Shown here piece after piece: positions 11,844 to 26,607 of a DNA stretch of 64,000 bases. The translations under genes were made by a program, and so were the position numbers. The notes under the pieces are model-generated. The model was not told where the DNA came from and did not search any database. It was given only the letters and a program-made list of their open reading frames with translations. The stretch covers positions 13,723 through 77,722 of IMG/VR virus record IMGVR_UViG_3300034069_001889; one strand, given 5' to 3'. Within the stretch, counting starts at the first letter, position 1, and the number at the start of each line of letters is the position of its first letter. Source of the DNA: a virus.

Positions 11844-11853
11844 GATATAAGCT
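11844..11853 (+). promoter_or_regulatory. Candidate promoter motif GATATAAGCT upstream of ssb
   Basis: One of four G-R-TATA-D-G-Y-T motifs heading plus-strand units; followed by a 9-bp palindrome TTTGAGGAG/CTCCTCAAA (11855-11877). Confidence 0.45.
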
Positions 11854-11891: not shown

Positions 11892-12320
11892 ATGTCAGGA
11901 GTAAACAAGGTCATTCTCGTCGGGCGCCTCGGGGCTGACCCCGAAGTGAAGCAAGTGCGGGACTCGCAGATGGCGCAGCTCAGCCTGGCAACCAGCGAAA
12001 AATACACCACGAAGGACGGGCAGAAACAGGAAAAGACCGAATGGCACCGCATCGTGGTCTGGGGCAAACAGGCCGAAGTGATTGGTAAGTACGCGACAAA
12101 GGGCAGCATGCTTTTCGTCGAAGGCAAGCTGCAGACCCGTTCGTGGGAAGACCAGCAGGGCCAGAAACGCTACACGACCGAAGTTCAATGTTCGGGCTTT
12201 CAATTCCTGTCGTCCAACAAAGAGGGCGGGGGCGGCCAGTCGAACAATTCCAGGTCCAACGTCGACCACGACTTTGGAAATTCACCCAACTTTAGCGCAG
12301 ACGAAGAGATTCCGTTCTAG
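11892..12320 (+). CDS. ssb: Single-stranded DNA-binding protein, bacterial type
   Basis: [18 protein letters not shown]...[11 protein letters not shown]...[10 protein letters not shown]; acidic C-terminal DEEIPF; AGGAGG RBS at 11882. Confidence 0.97.
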
Positions 12321-12348: not shown

Positions 12349-12579
12349 ATGGCTAAAGACGACGACGCAGACACCGAAGTGACCGAGGAATTCGAGCACG
12401 AAGAAGTCGATGATACCGACCTCGATCAAGACGAAGAGCCCGAAGAGGAGGAGATCGAGTTTGAGGTGGAAGAAGAAGATGATGAATTTAATCCCAGAGA
12501 CGAAAATGACGACGGGATAGATTTCGAAGAAGAGGAAGAAGTCGAGGAGCAAGAGCTCCCCGTGGGCCAAGCTCACTAG
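12349..12579 (+). CDS. Extremely acidic small protein (42 of 76 residues D/E)
   Basis: AAGGAGG RBS; directly follows ssb and precedes a terminator. Confidence 0.8.
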   Translation: MAKDDDADTEVTEEFEHEEVDDTDLDQDEEPEEEEIEFEVEEEDDEFNPRDENDDGIDFEEEEEVEEQELPVGQAH

Positions 12580-12590
12580 TTCCTCGGAAG

Positions 12591-12626
12591 AAACCCGTCC
12601 CGCTTACCCGGAGGCGGGTTTTCTTT
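12591..12626 (+). terminator. Intrinsic terminator after the ssb/acidic protein unit
   Basis: AAACCCG...CGGGTTT stem followed by TTCTTT. Confidence 0.7.
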
Positions 12627-12650: not shown

Positions 12651-12660
12651 GGTATATGTT
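12651..12660 (+). promoter_or_regulatory. Candidate promoter motif GGTATATGTT directly upstream of the structured RNA
   Basis: Same motif class as 11844, 19963 and 31815; the implied +1 falls at about 12664-12667, the 5' strand of the closing helix. Confidence 0.5.
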
Positions 12661-12663
12661 TAC

Positions 12664-12976
12664 TGGTAGAGATTTACAGCTTCGTACGCGAAGACTGTTC
12701 ATCTTGCATTCTCTCGCACACAGACAGACGTTTGTTTCTTTGAACCGCTAAGTTCGCTTCGCGGTGTTCCGTCCAATTAAGCAAGCAGTTGTCGCTCAAG
12801 GCGCAGTCTCCTTTGGCGAAAAACGACTTGTCGTTTGTCTACAGTCTCTATGGTAATTCTCGCACGGTCGGCCTTGTTCACGTTGGTTCACCCCAGCCCA
12901 TAGGCTTTCTTGGGGGTTGCCCGTAAGACCATAGACTATCGTTTCAAAGAGAGACCTGGTTCGCGTCCAGCTACCA
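12664..12976 (+). ncRNA. Unclassified structured RNA candidate with tRNA-like closing domain
   Basis: Closing helix TGGTAG(12664-69)/CTACCA(12971-76); T-arm-like CTGG-TTCGCGT-CCAG (12956-70); UACG- and UUCG-capped hairpins; long-range helices 12710-15/12949-54, 12722-30/12832-40 (G-U on + strand) and 12848-54/12928-34; no credible ORF. Confidence 0.6.
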
Positions 12977-13019
12977 CACATGACGCGACCTGCGCCTTAT
13001 TGGGCCCGTGAGGCCCCCC

Positions 13020-13041
13020 GTGCCCGCGAGGGCACATTTTT
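13020..13041 (+). terminator. Intrinsic terminator downstream of the structured RNA
   Basis: GTGCCC-GCGA-GGGCAC (GNRA loop) followed by ATTTTT; a second GC hairpin GGGCC-cgtga-GGCCC lies just upstream. Confidence 0.7.
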
Positions 13042-13127: not shown

Positions 13128-13535
13128 ATGCTACAAAGTACCCAGGTCCTCAAACTCAAGAATGCCGTTCGGTCGACGCTTGGTTCGATGGCACTGAACG
13201 ATTTGCAACAAGTTGGCGTGCTCGACGACGTGTTGCTGCTTTTAAAAAAGCTAGAGCCGCAGGCGGGCGTCAAATCGACGCTGACTTCGTTGGGCGTAGA
13301 CCCGAGCGACAAACAAGAACAACCTGCCGAGAGCATTGCCGCGAGCACGGCGGGGAACATCAAGACATTACGCAAAAGATCTCCTAAGCGCAGCTACTCC
13401 GAAAAAGTCCGCAAGGAATTTGCGAGACTCTTGGCGGAAGAATCAAAATCCGTCCCTTCCGCCGCCCGTAAGCTCGGCATCAATGTTGCCACGGCGTACG
13501 GCTGGAAAAGCTTGATCTCAAAAACTGCCAATTAG
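13128..13535 (+). CDS. Helix-turn-helix DNA-binding protein (~135 aa)
   Basis: C-terminal YSEKVRKEFARLL...SVPSAARKLGINVATAYGWK (HTH_Tnp_1-like); AAAGGA RBS before ATG 13128; no transposase catalytic domain. Confidence 0.7.
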   Translation: MLQSTQVLKLKNAVRSTLGSMALNDLQQVGVLDDVLLLLKKLEPQAGVKSTLTSLGVDPSDKQEQPAESIAASTAGNIKTLRKRSPKRSYSEKVRKEFARLLAEESKSVPSAARKLGINVATAYGWKSLISKTAN

Positions 13536-13780
13536 TACTGAATGATCTGGGGCGGGGGAGGTGGCGGCTCCTTCGGCCCGGAGAATGCCTTGGCGGCAAG
13601 CACGGTCCCGCCGAGTGCCATGAACGGGTGCTTCTTGATCAAGCCCGACACCATGCCCGGTGATTTTTTTGCAACGTCCGCGCCTGCGGCCGCGGCGGGC
13701 GCGCCTTTAAACACCTGACCCGCCTTAGCCGTCATGTCGCCGAAGAACCCTGCCGTCTTCTCAAATCCACTACTAAACAT
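13532..13780 (-). CDS. Small protein with MFSSGFEKTA leader, amphipathic Gly/Ala core and poly-Pro tail
   Basis: ATG overlaps the RNAP stop (TGATG); leader motif. Confidence 0.8.
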   Translation of the reverse strand: MFSSGFEKTAGFFGDMTAKAGQVFKGAPAAAAGADVAKKSPGMVSGLIKKHPFMALGGTVLAAKAFSGPKEPPPPPPQIIQY

Positions 13781-16700
13781 CAGTATGTCTCTTTCTTTTT
13801 ACCGAACGACGCCCCGTGAGCGAACGCAGGGATCGGGTGATTGTCGGCCACGTCCGACGACCAGTTCTGCGCCGCGCCCTCGGTCAACGTATTCTTAATT
13901 TTACGATACCCGAGCTGAGCCATCCAATTTTTCTTAGTAAACGGAATCTCGGTGATCGCCTTGATCATTGGCTTGTGAAGCAACGGATCTTTGAGCACGT
14001 CGATCTCATTACGGAAGCCCGCCGCCTTGAGGTAAGGGATGTCCTTGTCCTGGATCTCGTGAAGGGCCGGCAGCTTGCCCACGTTGTTCTGAAGGTGATA
14101 ACCCGCAGAATCTTCGACGTGGACCTTTTTAGCGCGCTGCTCGTTGTAGTGCTTGGCCGTCGTGTAGGGCATGACGTCCCCCGGAAGCACGTTCATGTGC
14201 TTTGGAGCGTGGAGCACCTGCGTGTTGTTCGCAACGGAGCGAACCACGGTCTCAAAGACACGGCGGTGCATGTTCACGCCCTGGCCCGCGTACGTGTTTT
14301 GAAGCTCGTCCACGATGTAGTTCTGGGCGGCGTCGAGACCTTTGTACCTCGCCAAGTTCTGGGGCTTGGTGACCCCTTCGGTCATGTTGTCGCCAACTTT
14401 GACCCGGTCGCCGACTCTCACGTTCAGTTTCAGATCCGGGTGAGTGGTGTAGCGCTTGTCACCGACCTCGATAACGTGTCCGCCGGCGGGCGCTTTCGTA
14501 ATCTTGGACACCTTGCCCTCGTTGGTGGCCATCGTGGCTTCCCGTGCCAGGTGGGCCGGCTGATTGACGAGCTGGTTGACGCGGTTAAATCCGGACACCG
14601 TTGCCGCGCCGGCCACGCCGCCCGTGTGGAAGGTTCGCATCGTGAACTGGGTGACGGGTTCAGACATTGCCTGCCCCATCTTGGCCCCGATGTTGTCCCC
14701 GAGCGAAGGTTTAGCGCCGTGTTCGTCGATACCAAAACAACGGGCGCACGTGCCTTTGGGAGCAATGCATTCGAGCGGGGTGCGCACGTCAACGGTCTTA
14801 GCCCCCTTCTTACGCAGGCTCGACAGCACCTGTGGAGTCACCAGCGTGTTGCGAGCGTAGCCGTGCTGATCCCGCGACAGGTACCGATCATAGATATCTT
14901 GAGTTCGGTCGAGAGGGAGCTTCAGACCTTTTTTCGTTCCGCAATCATCAACGGTGATGATGTTGTCGACCGTTGCTGCCAAGATGTCTTTATTGAGCGC
15001 GCCGGGTTTCGACGTTTGGAGCGTCCGGTCCATCATGCCCTTGCGAACACCGTAAGACGCGATGAAATAGTCGGAGGTAGTCAGACCCTCGGCGTAGCTG
15101 TTCTTCACGGGGACGGGCACCTTGCGGTTTTTGGAATCCACGAGGATCCCGGGTGCCGTCACCATTTGCCGCAGCTGCAAATCGTTACCCTTGGCGCCGG
15201 ATTCCACCATGCGGTAAAAACTCGACCCAGAGTCCTTCAATTGCTTCTTGCCTGAAGTCTCGTAAGCCTGCGTGGCGGCCTTTTCGTAAATTTCGGAGAT
15301 CTTGGCGTCAAGTCCCACTCCGGCTTTTTCTTTCTTACGAAGGGCCGCGACCGCGCGATCGGCCATTGCGAACAAACGGTCCCGCTCTCTATTATCGACC
15401 TGCAAATCTTTGATGCTGGCCGAAAACCCGGTTTGGTACGAGTGCTGGTCGCCCAGGTTCTTGAGCTCCTGGACGAGGGTCGCAAATTTGTTCGGCTCTT
15501 TTTTAGCGAGGTCTTTGAAGAACTCACGCGCGCCGGCCTTGTTGAGCTGCTTGGTCACGTGAAAGCCGCTCGGCAAGAGCTTGTTGATCCGCGCGCGTCC
15601 CTCGGGGTTTTGAGAAAGAAGGTAGAGCCCGATGGCCGCTTCCTGCGAAGGAACGAGCATGAGTTCGCCGGTGCCGGGGTTCCAGAGGTTGTTCGACGGC
15701 AGCATCTTGTGCGATTCGGTCAGCGCTTCCTGGGAGATTGGCACGTGAATGTTGACCGCATCCCCGTCGATGTCGGCGTTGAAGCCTTTGAAGACGAGCG
15801 GAGGCACCTTGATCGCTAAACCGTCCGTGAGTTGTGGCTTGAAGGCCATGATCGAGAATTTGTGGAGCGACGGCGCCCGGTTCATCATGACCGTGCGTTT
15901 TTTCATCACGGCCTCAAGCTGCTGCCGGGCCCGGACGGTTTTCTTCTCCACCTCTTGGCGCGCGTCTACGGGGGCGTAGCCGGCTTTAACAAACTCGCTG
16001 ACGATGAATGGCTTGAAGATGCTCCACGCCATTTTTTCCGGGATGCCGATTTCATCCACGTGAAGATCCGGTCCGTTGGTGATCACGCCGCGGCCCACGA
16101 GATCTTGTTTCTTCGTGATTAATTTGTTGAGGAAGAAACCCTGCTTGGGCTGATTGTTCGAGATTTGCTGCAAGAAGCCTTCGGCCGGCTGGTCCTTACC
16201 CCGGGGGTAAAGAGCCTCCAGTCCCGAGATGACGCGCGTTTGTTTGTAAGTCTCCTGGCGGAGCTGGGCCTTTTCGCTATCGTCGAGGTATTTCATGACC
16301 GGGTACTTGTGCGCCTCGGCAAGGATACCAAGACCTTGGTAAAGGTAGTTGGACGGCGATACCGACCGCCCGATTCCAGGCAACTCCTCGATCGGGCGAA
16401 ACTTTGGCGGCACGACGGGCACGGTCGAGCGCGTGTAGGCGTCGGTGGGCTTGAGGTTAAGCTCTTTCAGTGCCGCGAGGTAGCGCACCTTACGGTTGAG
16501 CGAATCGATCTCCGTAGCTTTCGTGTCGGGCTTCGCGGCCCTCGACTTAAGCAAAGCGCTCGCATTTTTCATTTCCTGCTCGACGTCGATGCCTTTAAGC
16601 AAATGCGAAATGGCTTCCCCACCCGTGACGTACCCTGGCGACGTTTTATCGGTGATCTTACCGTCCTTGCCTAGAAACCGCTTTCCCGCGATCAAGTCGT

Positions 16701-19700
16701 TGTATTGAGGTTTGCTCAAGCCCGTGAGGTTGCGGATGGCGCCTTCGAAAATCGGGTTCGGGAGCCGTTCGGGAAGGTCAATGTGCGTGTACCCGCCGCC
16801 ATCGAGGCCACCCGTCTTGGCGCGGTCAAAGAACCCGCCTTTAATTTCTTGCATGTCTTTGCCCCGAACAAACTGCCAGTTATCGACGGCACCGTTTGAG
16901 AGTTTCAAGGTCTCTTTGTCGGTGAGGGGCGAGATTCCAAAATTCGAACCATTCTTCGTGACGTTGATGCCGGCGCCTTTGAGAAGGCCCAAAAACTTGT
17001 CGAACGCGAAGGTGGTCTTCGGGGGCGGCAGAGGCTTTCCGGTCGAAAGGTGATCCCAGAGCTCATCGTTGCGCTCGGATTTCATGTGCGCATCGTGCAG
17101 GTTCTTTTTGGCACCGTGGGAGAGCATCGAGTAAAAAGCGAGCGCGTCGACGCTCTTCGTTCCGGACTCACCACGACGGAGTGGCTGCATGTTGCGATCG
17201 TAACCAGAACCGGGCGTCCGCGCCGAGAAGCCGGACTTCCCCGTCTTGGCCAGACGGATGATGTGCGGAATCCCGACGCTCACTTCGCCAAGCTTGTTCC
17301 CTTTCGGGTCGTAGAGTGTCTCGGTGTCGGTCAGGCCCGCTTTTTTCAGATCAGCGATAATCTTGGTGTTGGTCGGCTCAGAGTCGAAATTTTTTACAAC
17401 GTAAGGTTTTCCCGTCTTATCCGCAATCTTCCCGGCGGCGGATTCATAGATCTGCCCAAGATTGATTCGGCTGATGACGCCGTGGGGGTTCAAGAACATA
17501 TCGGGCACCTGTCCGTCGGCGGTGCGGGGCGCTTCGCTATCGGGTATGACCTTCGAAATTACGCCCTTGTTCCCGTGTACGCCCGAAAGCTTATCAGACT
17601 CGCGCGCGGGCTCAATGGTCTTGACGTAGACGTGGTGGCCGTCCGAGTTTTTATTCACGTCCGTCACGATACCGGGATATTCGCCCGTGTACTTCACGGC
17701 CGCGTCAGCCCAAGGCACGGCCAGCGCCTTGTTGAGTTTTTGGAGCGTCTTGTTGGCAAGCGAGCCCGTGTTGTTGGCAAGGCCCGCGATCAAAATGTCG
17801 CCGGGCTTCACGCGGGCACCTTTTTTGATGACGCCGTTTTCGCCCAGCTGATTGCGCGCGTCCAAGGGAATCTTGCGGCCGTGGTAGGACTCCCACTTAC
17901 TGCCGTTAACAATAAACCGTCCGGCTTCGGGCTGAAAAGAGTGTTTGATCACTTGCTCGGCCGAAAGTTTCTTCGACGCCGACTCCGTGATGACGATCCC
18001 GTCTTCAAAGGTGTGGCCCGGGATTGGGAGGTAGGCGACCTTCAAATTTGTGCCCAGCGCCAAGGATCCGCCCTTGGTGAAGTTTGAATCCGCAATCAAC
18101 TGGCCGGCCTTGACCCGGTCGCCCACTTTCACGGTGGGCGTGTGGTGGATATACGTTTTTTGGTTGAGCGGGAAGTTGTTGTAGAGCGGAATCTTCTCGG
18201 AATCGATCTGGATGTAATCGGGACCGATGGCCTTGACCGTGCCGTTCTTACTCGCCGCTACGCTGAACTGCTTTCCGATCGCCTCCTGGAAGGTCTGCCC
18301 TTTGACGAGCTCCGTTTGCACGTGAGGCGCTTCGCGGTTGATCAGCGGCAGCGCCTGGCCGAGCTGTTTTGCCGCCATGGCCGTACGCGTGCCCTGGTTG
18401 TTCTTGAGGAACGGCACGAGATTGGAGGAGTGCGAGAAGAGGCCGATCGGGGTGGCCAGTACGCCGTCGACCTTGCCGCTGGGGACGACCATCACCTTGC
18501 CGCGATGCTGAACTTTGACACCGCTCGGGTTTTTGAACTTACCGTCGACGATCTCGTCAGGAAACGCCACTGCGCGGCCAAACATTTGGAGCGGAGTCAA
18601 ACGCTCGTGCTTTTTGGTTTTGGTGTTGTAAACCGACGCGTTGATTTCGCGCCCATTTTTCTGCACGCCCGCGGCCATGTGCAAAACCAAGCCCGTGGTG
18701 TCAGCCTCTGGCGTGTGCACGGGATCGACGAACCCAATGTGGGACGGGTGAACCTCGCGCAAATTGACCGGTACGGCGTGTTCTTGCGTAATACCACCCG
18801 TGCCCATGACCGTGAGCTTTGAAGCCCCGGCCAGCATGTTGATAGGATTGTATTGCTCGGGCGGGTTGACGCGGTCATCACCCTTAAAGAAAGCTTCGAC
18901 GGGCGACGTGAGCTTTCGAAAGTCGATCATCTTTTTGAGGTTTGCCCGACGTCCTAAATGCTTACCGATCAAATTTTTGAGCTGCTGCGTTTCTTTCTTG
19001 CTCGTAAGCTTGTCGTGCAGCATGTCTTCAACGGACCGCACTTCTTTAAACACTAGATTCTCGACGTCGTCAGGGTCGGCTTTGTGGTTGTGAACCTGGA
19101 GGATCTTTTTAGCTGTGTCCAGTACCAAGCCTTTGGAAAGCTCCGAGTGACTTGTCCCGAGGGTGATGCCCGTAATGCCCGGATCGACCTTCATCTTTGG
19201 CGCCGTTTGCTTGACCGCGTCCATTGCCGTCTGGCGGTTGTCCGTCGTCACGTTCGCAATCGACTTCGCAAGCTTGTGGTAGCCCGCGTCACGGTCATAC
19301 TTGCGGTTGGCCAGGAAAACATCTTCACCAATGGTTTTGATGATTTCTTGATCGCTGGCCCCGAGGGAGTGAAGTAGGGGCAGAATCCCGACCTTGGTTT
19401 TGTCGCCCATGACGACGTCGTAGCGATTTGTCTTGGAATCAAAATTGATGTCGAAGTTTTTCTGGCGCTCGCCCTGGGTTACGACCATGCCTTTGTAGGT
19501 ATCGCCCTTATCCGAGGCCGTGACGTACGTCCCGGGCTTGCGGATCATTTGGTTTGCAACCTGGTATTCGTTACCTGAGACGATATATGAGTGCCTAGGG
19601 GTCAATCTCGGGACCGTGGCAATCCGGATCTTTTCGATACGGTCGACGACCTTACCGTTTTCATCTTTGAGGACGAGCGAGGCCATAACGGGCACGCCCC

Positions 19701-19890
19701 AAGTGCCCCCGGCGAGCTTCACCTTTTTTTGGTCGGCGTAGTCATCTACCGCGGTGGTCTTGTCATCGAGCCAGATTTTAGGCGCGTCAATTCGGTGCCC
19801 GTTTTTCTCGACGGGAAAGAGCCTCTTGTACGCATCGACCACGGTAGAAGAGAGCTTCTGGAATTCGTCGGCACCTGAGAATGTACGCAT
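13780..19890 (-). CDS. rpoBC: Fused beta-beta' multi-subunit DNA-directed RNA polymerase (2036 aa)
   Basis: beta motifs DKLSGVHGNKGV and LNPHGVISRINLGQ; beta' motifs NRAPSLHKFSIMAF, NADIDGD, SGAKG, GLTTSDYF..YGVRKG, DDCGT, CIAPKGTCARC and GQAMSEPVTQFTMRTFHTGG; junction near 16950 with no stop. Confidence 0.95.
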   Translation of the reverse strand: MRTFSGADEFQKLSSTVVDAYKRLFPVEKNGHRIDAPKIWLDDKTTAVDDYADQKKVKLAGGTWGVPVMASLVLKDENGKVVDRIEKIRIATVPRLTPRHSYIVSGNEYQVANQMIRKPGTYVTASDKGDTYKGMVVTQGERQKNFDINFDSKTNRYDVVMGDKTKVGILPLLHSLGASDQEIIKTIGEDVFLANRKYDRDAGYHKLAKSIANVTTDNRQTAMDAVKQTAPKMKVDPGITGITLGTSHSELSKGLVLDTAKKILQVHNHKADPDDVENLVFKEVRSVEDMLHDKLTSKKETQQLKNLIGKHLGRRANLKKMIDFRKLTSPVEAFFKGDDRVNPPEQYNPINMLAGASKLTVMGTGGITQEHAVPVNLREVHPSHIGFVDPVHTPEADTTGLVLHMAAGVQKNGREINASVYNTKTKKHERLTPLQMFGRAVAFPDEIVDGKFKNPSGVKVQHRGKVMVVPSGKVDGVLATPIGLFSHSSNLVPFLKNNQGTRTAMAAKQLGQALPLINREAPHVQTELVKGQTFQEAIGKQFSVAASKNGTVKAIGPDYIQIDSEKIPLYNNFPLNQKTYIHHTPTVKVGDRVKAGQLIADSNFTKGGSLALGTNLKVAYLPIPGHTFEDGIVITESASKKLSAEQVIKHSFQPEAGRFIVNGSKWESYHGRKIPLDARNQLGENGVIKKGARVKPGDILIAGLANNTGSLANKTLQKLNKALAVPWADAAVKYTGEYPGIVTDVNKNSDGHHVYVKTIEPARESDKLSGVHGNKGVISKVIPDSEAPRTADGQVPDMFLNPHGVISRINLGQIYESAAGKIADKTGKPYVVKNFDSEPTNTKIIADLKKAGLTDTETLYDPKGNKLGEVSVGIPHIIRLAKTGKSGFSARTPGSGYDRNMQPLRRGESGTKSVDALAFYSMLSHGAKKNLHDAHMKSERNDELWDHLSTGKPLPPPKTTFAFDKFLGLLKGAGINVTKNGSNFGISPLTDKETLKLSNGAVDNWQFVRGKDMQEIKGGFFDRAKTGGLDGGGYTHIDLPERLPNPIFEGAIRNLTGLSKPQYNDLIAGKRFLGKDGKITDKTSPGYVTGGEAISHLLKGIDVEQEMKNASALLKSRAAKPDTKATEIDSLNRKVRYLAALKELNLKPTDAYTRSTVPVVPPKFRPIEELPGIGRSVSPSNYLYQGLGILAEAHKYPVMKYLDDSEKAQLRQETYKQTRVISGLEALYPRGKDQPAEGFLQQISNNQPKQGFFLNKLITKKQDLVGRGVITNGPDLHVDEIGIPEKMAWSIFKPFIVSEFVKAGYAPVDARQEVEKKTVRARQQLEAVMKKRTVMMNRAPSLHKFSIMAFKPQLTDGLAIKVPPLVFKGFNADIDGDAVNIHVPISQEALTESHKMLPSNNLWNPGTGELMLVPSQEAAIGLYLLSQNPEGRARINKLLPSGFHVTKQLNKAGAREFFKDLAKKEPNKFATLVQELKNLGDQHSYQTGFSASIKDLQVDNRERDRLFAMADRAVAALRKKEKAGVGLDAKISEIYEKAATQAYETSGKKQLKDSGSSFYRMVESGAKGNDLQLRQMVTAPGILVDSKNRKVPVPVKNSYAEGLTTSDYFIASYGVRKGMMDRTLQTSKPGALNKDILAATVDNIITVDDCGTKKGLKLPLDRTQDIYDRYLSRDQHGYARNTLVTPQVLSSLRKKGAKTVDVRTPLECIAPKGTCARCFGIDEHGAKPSLGDNIGAKMGQAMSEPVTQFTMRTFHTGGVAGAATVSGFNRVNQLVNQPAHLAREATMATNEGKVSKITKAPAGGHVIEVGDKRYTTHPDLKLNVRVGDRVKVGDNMTEGVTKPQNLARYKGLDAAQNYIVDELQNTYAGQGVNMHRRVFETVVRSVANNTQVLHAPKHMNVLPGDVMPYTTAKHYNEQRAKKVHVEDSAGYHLQNNVGKLPALHEIQDKDIPYLKAAGFRNEIDVLKDPLLHKPMIKAITEIPFTKKNWMAQLGYRKIKNTLTEGAAQNWSSDVADNHPIPAFAHGASFGKKKETY

Positions 19891-24746: not shown

Positions 24747-25757
24747 TCAGTACGTCGAAATTGAGATGTTGCTGGAGTACGTCTGACCTTGGTACGCGAT
24801 GTCGACTTTCATCACGTACGTACGGCTCTTGGCTATGATCCCCGACGCACTCGGCCGTGAAAAGTGGATAACGCCTTGCCCGCTCGGCTGGCCCAGCGGC
24901 CCCAGCGCAAAGATGAGTGTCCCGGAGGAGTCGTATAGAGACACCGAAGCCTGGTCGGGCTGCAGCACAACAGTTCCGTTCTCAGACAGCCACACGGCCA
25001 TGTCTATCGTATCGTTTTTCGGGTCCACTGCAAAGGACCCGCTTGCTTGCCAAGAGGTGAGGTCCCATTTCAAAATGTCCGTGATGCCGGCGAGATCGGC
25101 CTTGGTCGCCAGGGCGTCGAGGTTTGGAATCTGGACTTCTATTTTCTGGGTCAACGTTCGCGTGGCGTAGCCCCAGATCTGGGCCGCAGTGATGCCGTTG
25201 GCTTGAAGTGCCGCCACCGCATCAACGAGCGCAGAGGTTTTTGCAGAAACGGAGTTCAGCACGTCGGCCGGTGCGCGCGTGCTCACTTTAGTATCCAACA
25301 AGTCCAGCCGGCTGATTCGATCAGGCGTGAGGCCCGAAAGAGCGTCCGGAACGGATGGTGCGTTACTGACCTTGGTGGCGATCTGGGAGAGGGCCGCGCC
25401 AGTCGTACCGGCCTGCAGGTGCGCGCTCAAGGGGGTGTCCCAAACGTCGGTTCCACCACCTCCTCCCGATGAGGGCAGCGTGCCCACGTCGAAGTTTTCC
25501 ATGACGAGTGTGTACGCATCGAGCACGTTATAGAGATTGCTGGTGTAAACGCGGTACACCACGTAGAACTGCCCTTCGTTTAACGGGACGTAGGAAACAA
25601 CGTACGACCCGATCGTGTTCCCGGGACTCATACGCAAGCTGTCGACGTGCGTGTTGGTAGCGTCGTAGATGTCCGCGAGCGGATACTTGCCGGCCAACCC
25701 ATCGTTGAGTTGAAGTACCAAGAGCATAGGTTTTCCGACCGGGTTCAGTGCTTTCAT
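24747..25757 (-). CDS. Virion structural-type protein (336 aa): Ig-like ends with helical middle
   Basis: VWD.....H...GTTGAAL and IWGYATRTLT repeats typical of phage virion proteins. Confidence 0.7.
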   Translation of the reverse strand: MKALNPVGKPMLLVLQLNDGLAGKYPLADIYDATNTHVDSLRMSPGNTIGSYVVSYVPLNEGQFYVVYRVYTSNLYNVLDAYTLVMENFDVGTLPSSGGGGGTDVWDTPLSAHLQAGTTGAALSQIATKVSNAPSVPDALSGLTPDRISRLDLLDTKVSTRAPADVLNSVSAKTSALVDAVAALQANGITAAQIWGYATRTLTQKIEVQIPNLDALATKADLAGITDILKWDLTSWQASGSFAVDPKNDTIDMAVWLSENGTVVLQPDQASVSLYDSSGTLIFALGPLGQPSGQGVIHFSRPSASGIIAKSRTYVMKVDIAYQGQTYSSNISISTY

Positions 25758-25764
25758 GATCGTC

Positions 25765-26607
25765 CTAATAGGTGAGTGTGCTGACGATCCACTGCCTCAC
25801 GGTGTAGTTCGCCGCCACAGGAATATCGAGGAAGTCGTACTCGGTGTCGTCGATGAACTTCTGACGCAAGACCGTCCCGCCCGTGCTGACGAAAGCCGCC
25901 AAGTAGGGCCCGTACTCAACCCAGAAATTGTTTAGCTCGGTTTGTAATGCCACGGACTTTGTCGGATTGACGGAGGCGCTCGCCGTCATGATCCGGTCCG
26001 CGCCCGTGCGGATAGAATCGATGATCCACTGGCGGGCGATCGAGCGCTCTTCAAGCTGCTGTTGGTGCTGGTACGTGTTGTGTGAGTCAAATGCCACGTC
26101 TTCAATTTTGTACCAATCATGGATTTGATCATCGACCGCGTAGTATCCAAGCATTCGAATCCGGCGGGTCATGAAATTGAGGCTGTCGGCCTCAAATGTA
26201 AACGTGATCTGCGCCATTTTGGTCTGGCCAAGATAGTAAGTCGAGACCATCGGCCGACCGGCCCTGGTAAACGTGACATCGCGCTTATTAAGATTGATTC
26301 CCGCCTGAAGGTGAAGCGTGAAGTCTAGCTTGGACGGGTCGAAGTGGATATATTCATTGGCGACGTAGTCCATGATGCGCAGTTTGCGCGTCGAGTAATA
26401 ATCTTCTTTTGCATCTTGAAGATCTTCGTACTCCTGCCAGAGCGCGTTTTTTAAAGAGTTCAGGTCATCTAAACTCATGGTCGTCTGACCGGCCGGCGCA
26501 AAGTCACCCGCGCGGAGAGCGGTCAGATACATCGGCCAGTCTTGTGGAATGTAGGGATCCTGTTTGTCGGCCGACAGGTCTCGATTGAAGATGACCGCGA
26601 AGTTCAT
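25765..26607 (-). CDS. Hypothetical protein (280 aa)
   Basis: Long ORF tightly packed in the operon. Confidence 0.75.
   Translation of the reverse strand: MNFAVIFNRDLSADKQDPYIPQDWPMYLTALRAGDFAPAGQTTMSLDDLNSLKNALWQEYEDLQDAKEDYYSTRKLRIMDYVANEYIHFDPSKLDFTLHLQAGINLNKRDVTFTRAGRPMVSTYYLGQTKMAQITFTFEADSLNFMTRRIRMLGYYAVDDQIHDWYKIEDVAFDSHNTYQHQQQLEERSIARQWIIDSIRTGADRIMTASASVNPTKSVALQTELNNFWVEYGPYLAAFVSTGGTVLRQKFIDDTEYDFLDIPVAANYTVRQWIVSTLTY

Follow-up and report, generated by a model that had tools for sequence, protein, structure and literature searches.

A predicted family of structured non-coding RNAs in uncultured large phages with a fused RNA polymerase

Introduction

In the genome of an uncultured phage, we have found what is most probably the gene for a stable, independently transcribed and structured non-coding RNA of ~375 nt (probability about 0.7). 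It lies on the plus strand at positions ~12665-13041 of the analysed stretch of DNA, a 64,000-nucleotide part of a 115,893-bp (~116-kb) phage record in IMG/VR, to which we refer as the window in the following. It would be the founding member of a small family in large phages with a fused RNA polymerase. Judging from sequence comparison, this family of phage-borne structured RNAs appears to be both real and new, and to lie outside the catalogued RNA families.

Non-coding RNAs that are both large and structured are rare. GOLLD and ROOL, the few examples known from phages, form unexpected RNA-only assemblies. The element described here adds a compact family of ~375-420 nt from a poorly known lineage, that of uncultured ~160-185-kb phages with a single-chain beta-beta' RNA polymerase, and offers a working promoter consensus (the -10-only box GGTATAAG) as well as terminators for these phages. 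If its partner proves to be a polymerase, a nuclease or the RNA itself, this would reveal how these phages employ RNA in addition to proteins in early and middle infection.

A preliminary description, made from the letters of the window alone, had proposed a structured RNA of tRNA-like topology at this place. In the following, we describe the locus, its homologues and their common architecture, weigh the alternative explanations, and compare the element with known RNAs.

Results

A putative transcription unit next to ssb

Upstream of the element and on the same strand lie ssb (11892-12320; Pfam SSB, 1.4e-35) and, 3' of it, an ORF of 76 aa (12349-12579) that consists almost entirely of Asp and Glu, has no Pfam family and could encode a DNA mimic or a partner of SSB. 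Small ORFs of 54-55 aa are likewise found 3' of ssb in the relatives L082, L084 and L087. The unit formed by ssb and the acidic ORF ends with an intrinsic terminator on the plus strand (12599-12618, to 12626 with its T-run), in which a CCCGC...GCGGG stem precedes the T-run. The element, in turn, ends with a GC-rich hairpin and an intrinsic terminator (13002-13041, plus strand), whose stem GTGCCC-GCGA-GGGCAC (13020-13035) is followed by five T up to position 13041. This confirms the terminator that the preliminary description had placed at 13020, and a hairpin of differing sequence followed by a terminator with its T-run also closes every homologue. The two terminators, at 12599-12618 and 13020-13035, thus bracket the stretch as a unit of its own. 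Downstream follow an HTH gene (13128-13535; HTH_Tnp_1) and, on the minus strand, the gene for a fused beta-beta' RNA polymerase of 2036 aa (13780-19890), with the Pfam domains Rpb2_3 and Rpb2_6 of beta and Rpb1_2, Rpb1_4 and Rpb1_5 of beta'.

At the 5' edge of the unit lies a -10-like promoter box, GGTATATG (12651-12658, plus strand; GGTATAAG in the homologues), without a -35 element. GGTATA(A/T)G opens all five known copies and stays unchanged while the flanks diverge, in line with the earlier description of a promoter-like motif at this position; no sigma-70-type promoter is predicted at 12651-12658. The same box stands ahead of the ssb block and of other units, both in the window and in its relatives. 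Matches to the loose pattern are no more frequent in the window than expected (four over the two strands, compared with ~7 estimated from base composition), and the weight of the box therefore derives from conservation and position, which suggest that the box is active as a promoter. In the form of a -10-only box, G(G/A/T)TATA(A/T)G, it occurs at positions 11844, 12651 and 19963 of the window and in all relatives examined; in all of these phages, the boxed units run opposite to the structural operons. We regard this pattern as a candidate promoter consensus of the phage lineage.

A separate, non-coding gene

As had been noted before, the gap contains no credible ORF. Between 12651 and 13041 there are only short ones, scattered over differing frames and strands (one, on the minus strand, has 61 aa), and none is common to the five copies. 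The alignment gaps, of 2, 13, 14 and 17 nt, are not multiples of three and break the reading frame, and a six-frame peptide comparison of the five copies returned only short matches, distributed over all frames and both strands, and no shared ATG-started ORF. As these comparisons show, what is kept in the four relatives is a nucleotide sequence and not a protein.

Homologues had been expected between ssb and the HTH gene. The first half of this expectation holds, as the element is always found at the end of the gene block on the ssb strand (five of five copies), but an HTH gene follows only in the window and in L082, and it is HTH_Tnp_1 in the former and HTH_3 in the latter. In L084, L103 and L105, converging gene ends lie downstream, and no gene comes next on the strand of the element. 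The upstream neighbours differ as well: the acidic ORF in the window, mutually unrelated ORFs of 141-142 aa in L082 and L105, and a tRNA gene beside a PTH2-like gene in L084. Since the flanking genes vary among the phages, the element is a gene in its own right rather than a leader, a module that moves among changing neighbours. The tRNA gene of L084 (13554-13629, minus strand), which lies directly upstream of the element and beside the ORF resembling PTH2 (peptidyl-tRNA hydrolase), has the anticodon CUA (amber-suppressor type; tRNA-Pyl according to ARAGORN), and the two genes together may hint at stop-codon reassignment or suppression.

Homologues in related phages

With the fused polymerase as query, we obtained dozens of homologues with 51-67% identity, mostly on contigs of up to 186 kb from Logan, ENA and JGI; more than 100 homologues of ~2000 aa are found in public assemblies. 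They fit the Caudovirales lineage with multi-subunit RNA polymerases described in PMC7481178, where non-coding RNAs are unmentioned. In a tree of the polymerases, the phage of the window falls into a clade with P0002-P0006, P0008 and P0010. Many of the polymerase homologues (P0008, P0019, P0022, P0026 and P0039-P0041) carry intein or LAGLIDADG insertions and are 2376-2945 aa long, and in one relative a TnpB (OrfB_IS605) gene lies near the polymerase (L106:307-1338).

Four relatives, whose polymerases are 61-67% identical to that of the window phage, possess a homologous unit of 390-420 nt, in each case on the minus strand of the respective locus: L082 (15349-15767; nhmmer E-value 1.9e-11 against the window, over 405 nt), L084 (13077-13490; 2.5e-11 against L082), L105 (24203-24591; 3.6e-17 against L084) and L103 (17181-17573; 2e-4 against L082). 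In an all-against-all comparison, they form one cluster with the window copy. DNA contigs aligned over the region show no variants in the covered parts of the element.

Other searches returned no further copies. Within IMG/VR, none of 80 loci found with SSB as anchor carried the element, the HTH gene, a 685-aa gene and a 369-aa gene as anchors led to no relatives, and exact-pattern scans with two patterns gave no match; neither did BLAST against GenBank phages. In the 185,579-species genome set (GTDB), a pattern scan found no copy of the element, and a scan based on the RNA polymerase found only cellular rpoC genes. Three matches from a pattern scan of JGI metagenomes were recognized by alignment as chance matches inside a protein-coding gene.

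In seven more distant relatives (L087, L102, L092, L093, L089, L091 and L094), the same place is occupied by units that measure 330-390 nt and likewise have the promoter box, a 5' hairpin and a terminator. They may be divergent members, and we left them out of the family as they do not align confidently to the core five. Two of them, ~350-nt promoter-to-terminator units from a sister clade (L087:17856-18205 and L102:16862-17231, both on the minus strand), match each other (nhmmer E-value 1.6e-24), and their hairpins differ by compensatory changes; they possibly represent either another RNA family or a diverged branch within the family described here.

Folding and strand

The plus strand of the element folds at -138.6 kcal/mol, compared with -116.6 +/- 5.8 kcal/mol for dinucleotide shuffles (z -3.79; one of 100 shuffles folds as well), and the minus strand also folds well (z -3.31). 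Over the five copies, the z-scores against shuffles are -3.79, -3.71, -3.90, -4.72 and -3.67. Together with the four homologues, these values bear out the earlier proposal of a discrete structured RNA. Single 9-bp complements (G-U allowed) are frequent by chance, at 6-9 per shuffled sequence, and individual helices therefore gain weight only from their conservation in homologues. In the helices without mismatches, G-U pairs occur but A-C pairs do not; this, together with the promoter box and the terminators on the plus strand, assigns the RNA to that strand, which the preliminary description had likewise favored.

The comparison is based on only five sequences, whose helices were aligned by hand; formal covariation statistics are weak, and alignments made with MAFFT take no account of structure. 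A covariance model built from the rod of L082 alone (R1) recovered the window copy with an E-value of 0.0012 and, with filters off, L084 with 0.34, and missed L103; such a single-sequence model is weak, and matches to the reverse strand and to hairpins contaminated the alignments that it produced.

A common architecture

The five copies show a common predicted architecture, which comprises a 5' hairpin, a 5' domain, a rod of ~156 nt, the A2/A4 helix, a 3' H-type pseudoknot and the terminator. All motifs quoted in the preliminary description are found where it had placed them (GGTATATG at 12651-12658, TCTCTC at 12710-12715, GAGAGA at 12949-12954, CTGG/CCAG at 12956-12959/12967-12970), and several of them turn out to belong to other structures than proposed. 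All features in this section lie on the plus strand.

The 5'-terminal hairpin (12669-12705), ACAGCUUCG-UACG-CGAAG-a-CUGU extended by GAGAU/AUCUU, is part of the minimum-free-energy fold. Hairpins of 9-14 bp and unrelated sequence occupy the same place in L082, L084, L105 and L103, 10-20 nt past the box. The hairpin is thus conserved, but as a 9-14-bp 5'-terminal hairpin and not as the D-arm for which it had been taken. In the 5' domain, the previously listed hairpin ACCGC-uAAG-UUCG-CUUc-GCGGU (12744-12765) likewise has its counterpart at this position in each of the other copies, with a stem sequence that changes from copy to copy (of GCUC/GAGC type in the other four). The UNCG loops, which had been read as a sign of selection on RNA structure, are not conserved.

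The central rod (12803-12958) is closed by GUCUC-CUUUGGCGA (12806-12819) and UCGUUUCAAAG-a-GAGAC (12939-12955). It measures 156 nt in the window and in L082 and 159 nt in L084, has equivalents in L103 and L105, and holds a conserved block, CCUUUGGCGAAA...GACUUGUCGUUUGUCUA, as well as a GGGGG run (12912-12916). The closing duplex is worth -16 to -30 kcal/mol and is beaten by none of 300 shuffles in four of the five copies; within its helix UUUGGCGA/UCGCCAAA, a G-C pair is replaced by A-U in L084. The preliminary description had paired GAGAGA with TCTCTC to form an anticodon stem. This pairing is not supported, as GAGAGA pairs far better with GUCUC at 12806-12810, in the closure of the rod, whereas the duplex on the TCTCTC side reaches only -9 to -11 kcal/mol and is non-significant in four of the five copies. 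More weakly, a 5' segment may compete with the 5' strand of the rod for its 3' strand.

A long-range helix is shown by the comparison and predicted to connect the large internal loop in the rod with the 5' domain. Its first strand, A2 (AGACAGACG, 12722-12730), pairs with A4 (CGUUUGUCU(A), 12832-12841) over 9-11 bp in all five copies, and in AGACAGACG/CGUUUGUCU a C-G pair becomes U-A in L103 and a G-U pair becomes A-U in three copies. The preliminary description had already recognized AGACAGACG and CGTTTGTCT (12832-12840) as complementary, and the homologues retain this helix. Within A4, the 3' half, GUCUA, has an alternative partner in A6 (UAGAC, 12932-12936); this pairing, too, is kept in five of five copies, and in L084 (GUUUU/AAAAC) it carries two double changes. 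Part of A4 is claimed by both A2 and A6: as the two helices have four bases in common, at most one of them can be complete, and they either form together in part, as a pseudoknotted junction, or alternate.

The 3' H-type pseudoknot (12956-12988) has the same arrangement in all five copies. Its stem 1, CUGG/CCAG (12956-12959/12967-12970), is CCGG/CCGG in L103 (U-A to C-G). Its stem 2, UCGCGU/ACGCGA (12961-12966/12983-12988), joins the bases immediately preceding CCAG to a strand that lies 6-12 nt farther downstream. The homologues have CACGCG/CGCGUG, AACGCA/UGCGUU, UACACG/CGUGUA and CGAC/GUCG instead; at three positions, both partners differ among L082, L084 and L103, and the stem in the window consists of six wholly different base pairs. 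Stem 1 had been described as a T-arm. The stem itself is conserved, but its part in a pseudoknot and the length of its loop, 7 nt in the window against 20 in L082, 18 in L084, 15 in L105 and 13 in L103 (13-22 nt over the four homologues), show that it is not a T-arm.

Comparison with catalogued RNA families

The Rfam search that had been suggested as a check matched no known family. At the gathering score, Rfam 15 gave no match across the 64-kb window, and at E<=10 only sroE (E 0.83), on the terminator. With cmscan, we covered the window and seven relatives' loci, of which three were run at E<=10 and four at the gathering score only; GOLLD, ROOL, OLE, HEARO and other large Rfam RNAs had no match on the element. 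RNase P RNA gave no Rfam match at E<=10, and neither did 6S RNA match. The large loop of the rod is one-sided, whereas 6S RNA has a two-sided central bubble in imitation of an open promoter. By eye, we found no complement to the AAAG(A/G)UCGG-like stretch of the P4 type, which the conserved CR-I and CR-V sequences form in RNase P RNA, and a riboswitch or leader with a constant downstream gene is not indicated, as the downstream genes differ or are absent.

With ARAGORN, no tRNA or tmRNA gene was found in the window. The ends of the element can pair there, as the preliminary description had proposed (TGGTAG/CTACCA), but a counterpart exists only in L082 (GUAGGA/UCCUAC) and not in L084, L105 or L103. 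As an acceptor stem, this pairing would have no G-U at position 3 and no CCA, and the RNA continues for ~65 nt beyond it into the terminator. A tmRNA tag frame with a resume codon is equally missing: the five copies share no ORF, and ARAGORN reports no tag. The earlier remark that there is neither a G3-U70 pair nor a clear tag is thus correct.

L103, by contrast, has a genuine tmRNA gene (25538-25926, minus strand; Rfam RF00023, 100.5 bits; ARAGORN tag ASFESPMLAAA*), which adjoins an ORF with an RRM domain and the end of the locus. It is separate from the copy of the element, which lies 8 kb away. Since L103 has both, the element is not the tmRNA of this phage.

Discussion

Alternative explanations

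How else could these observations be explained? The preliminary description had envisaged a new class of tRNA or tmRNA mimics, in which the paired ends form an acceptor stem beside a T-arm and large domains are inserted between them. The window copy indeed allows this, as TGGTAG/CTACCA adjoins the CTGG-7 nt-CCAG hairpin; L082 has the equivalent end pairing, and the size is close to that of tmRNA. Yet only the length survives comparison, and not the layout: the CTGG/CCAG loop grows to 13-22 nt in the four homologues and its stem belongs to a pseudoknot, the end pairing is absent in three copies, there is no G3:U70 pair, CCA end or tag frame, and ARAGORN and Rfam find nothing on the element, although they find the tmRNA of L103 and the tRNA of L084. 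We therefore reject this class and give it next to no credence. A cis-acting leader, attenuator or riboswitch controlling the HTH gene would explain why such a gene lies within ~90 nt downstream in the window and in L082, and why the element combines a terminator with mutually exclusive pairings, as expression platforms do. However, the two HTH genes belong to different families and have TATA-type boxes of their own (in L082 at 15314), the other three copies are followed by no gene on their strand, and a leader of 375 nt that begins with a 5' hairpin and ends in two terminal hairpins would be unusual. We consider such a role very improbable.

The place in a replication-gene block next to ssb, the ability of both strands to fold, the conserved G-run and an AT-rich stretch past the terminator could also point to an element that acts at the level of DNA (an origin of replication, for instance, or a site for packaging or binding) or to a primer or origin transcript, rather than to a free functional RNA. 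This is quite unlikely, given that the helices, the pseudoknot included, are kept through changed sequence and tolerate G-U but show no A-C pairs, as fits an RNA from the plus strand; moreover, strong terminators end the transcript, unlike in read-through primer RNAs, and the cumulative GC skew has no turn at the site. Finally, short ORFs such as that of 61 aa and the frequency of long complements by chance might suggest a decayed or unrecognized protein-coding gene, or mere coincidence of similarity and folding. Peptide matches in every frame and the lack of an ORF common to the five copies contradict the former; nhmmer E-values down to 1e-17 at a syntenic place, and five of five copies that fold better than shuffles, contradict the latter. 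Both are hardly conceivable.

Possible functions

A gene for a stable structured RNA is thus the reading that we prefer. The polymerase or sigma factor that reads the GGTATAAG boxes would transcribe this gene along with the replication-gene block, and the product would function in trans through its fold, most likely by binding a protein as a scaffold or decoy, and not as an antisense RNA. When up to three mismatches are allowed, the 64-kb window has no other site complementary to the conserved loop of 17 nt; in the 116-kb contig, the 9-mer AGACARACG is confined to A2 and the strand opposite A4. The lack of a complementary phage site and the use of conserved bases in internal helices argue against antisense action.

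Among the functional options, a stable, trans-acting and protein-binding RNA that is made alongside the replication genes appears possible, with a likelihood somewhat short of even. Roles in self-assembly or as a conformational switch, as a transcript associated with an origin, or as an antisense RNA against host RNAs are less likely. The two conserved partners of A4, namely A2 and, for its 3' half, A6, suggest a pseudoknotted junction or a two-fold switch. It is unlikely, though conceivable, that the element represents a new class of ornate phage RNAs, in which duplicated complementary strands would drive such a switch or a strand-swapped, RNA-only multimer, as in ROOL and GOLLD, or that it serves as a decoy for the host or phage RNA polymerase.

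Relation to known RNAs

Both GOLLD and ROOL, found in phages and prophages, are large ornate RNAs (Weinberg et al., 2017, PMC5737381), for which cryo-EM structures are reported in PMC12286853. Like these, the element is large, highly structured and phage-borne and forms its own transcription unit; they often lie beside tRNA genes, and the L084 copy directly adjoins one. It differs from them in being about half their size, in having no Rfam match and in residing in different phages. With tmRNA (RF00023), it shares a similar length, a pseudoknot and an occurrence in phages of a clade that carries tmRNA genes, as L103 does, but it has neither a conserved tRNA-like domain nor a tag frame, and it does not match the tmRNA model.

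The rod of ~156 nt, with its irregular helices and large conserved internal loop, is reminiscent of 6S RNA and other rod-shaped RNAs that sequester proteins, and the context, too, bears some likeness to that of 6S RNA, in that the phage brings its own polymerase and sigma factor. In contrast to 6S RNA, however, the loop is one-sided (~16 nt against 0-3 nt), further domains and a pseudoknot are present, and no 6S model matches; by analogy alone, the element might bind the polymerase, but this is pure conjecture. Lastly, the pRNA of phi29 shows no likeness in sequence or structure, is half the size of the element and is encoded at the genome end instead of in a replication block. Nevertheless, both are structured RNAs encoded by a phage and equipped with an early-type promoter, and both would work as folded particles rather than as antisense RNAs.
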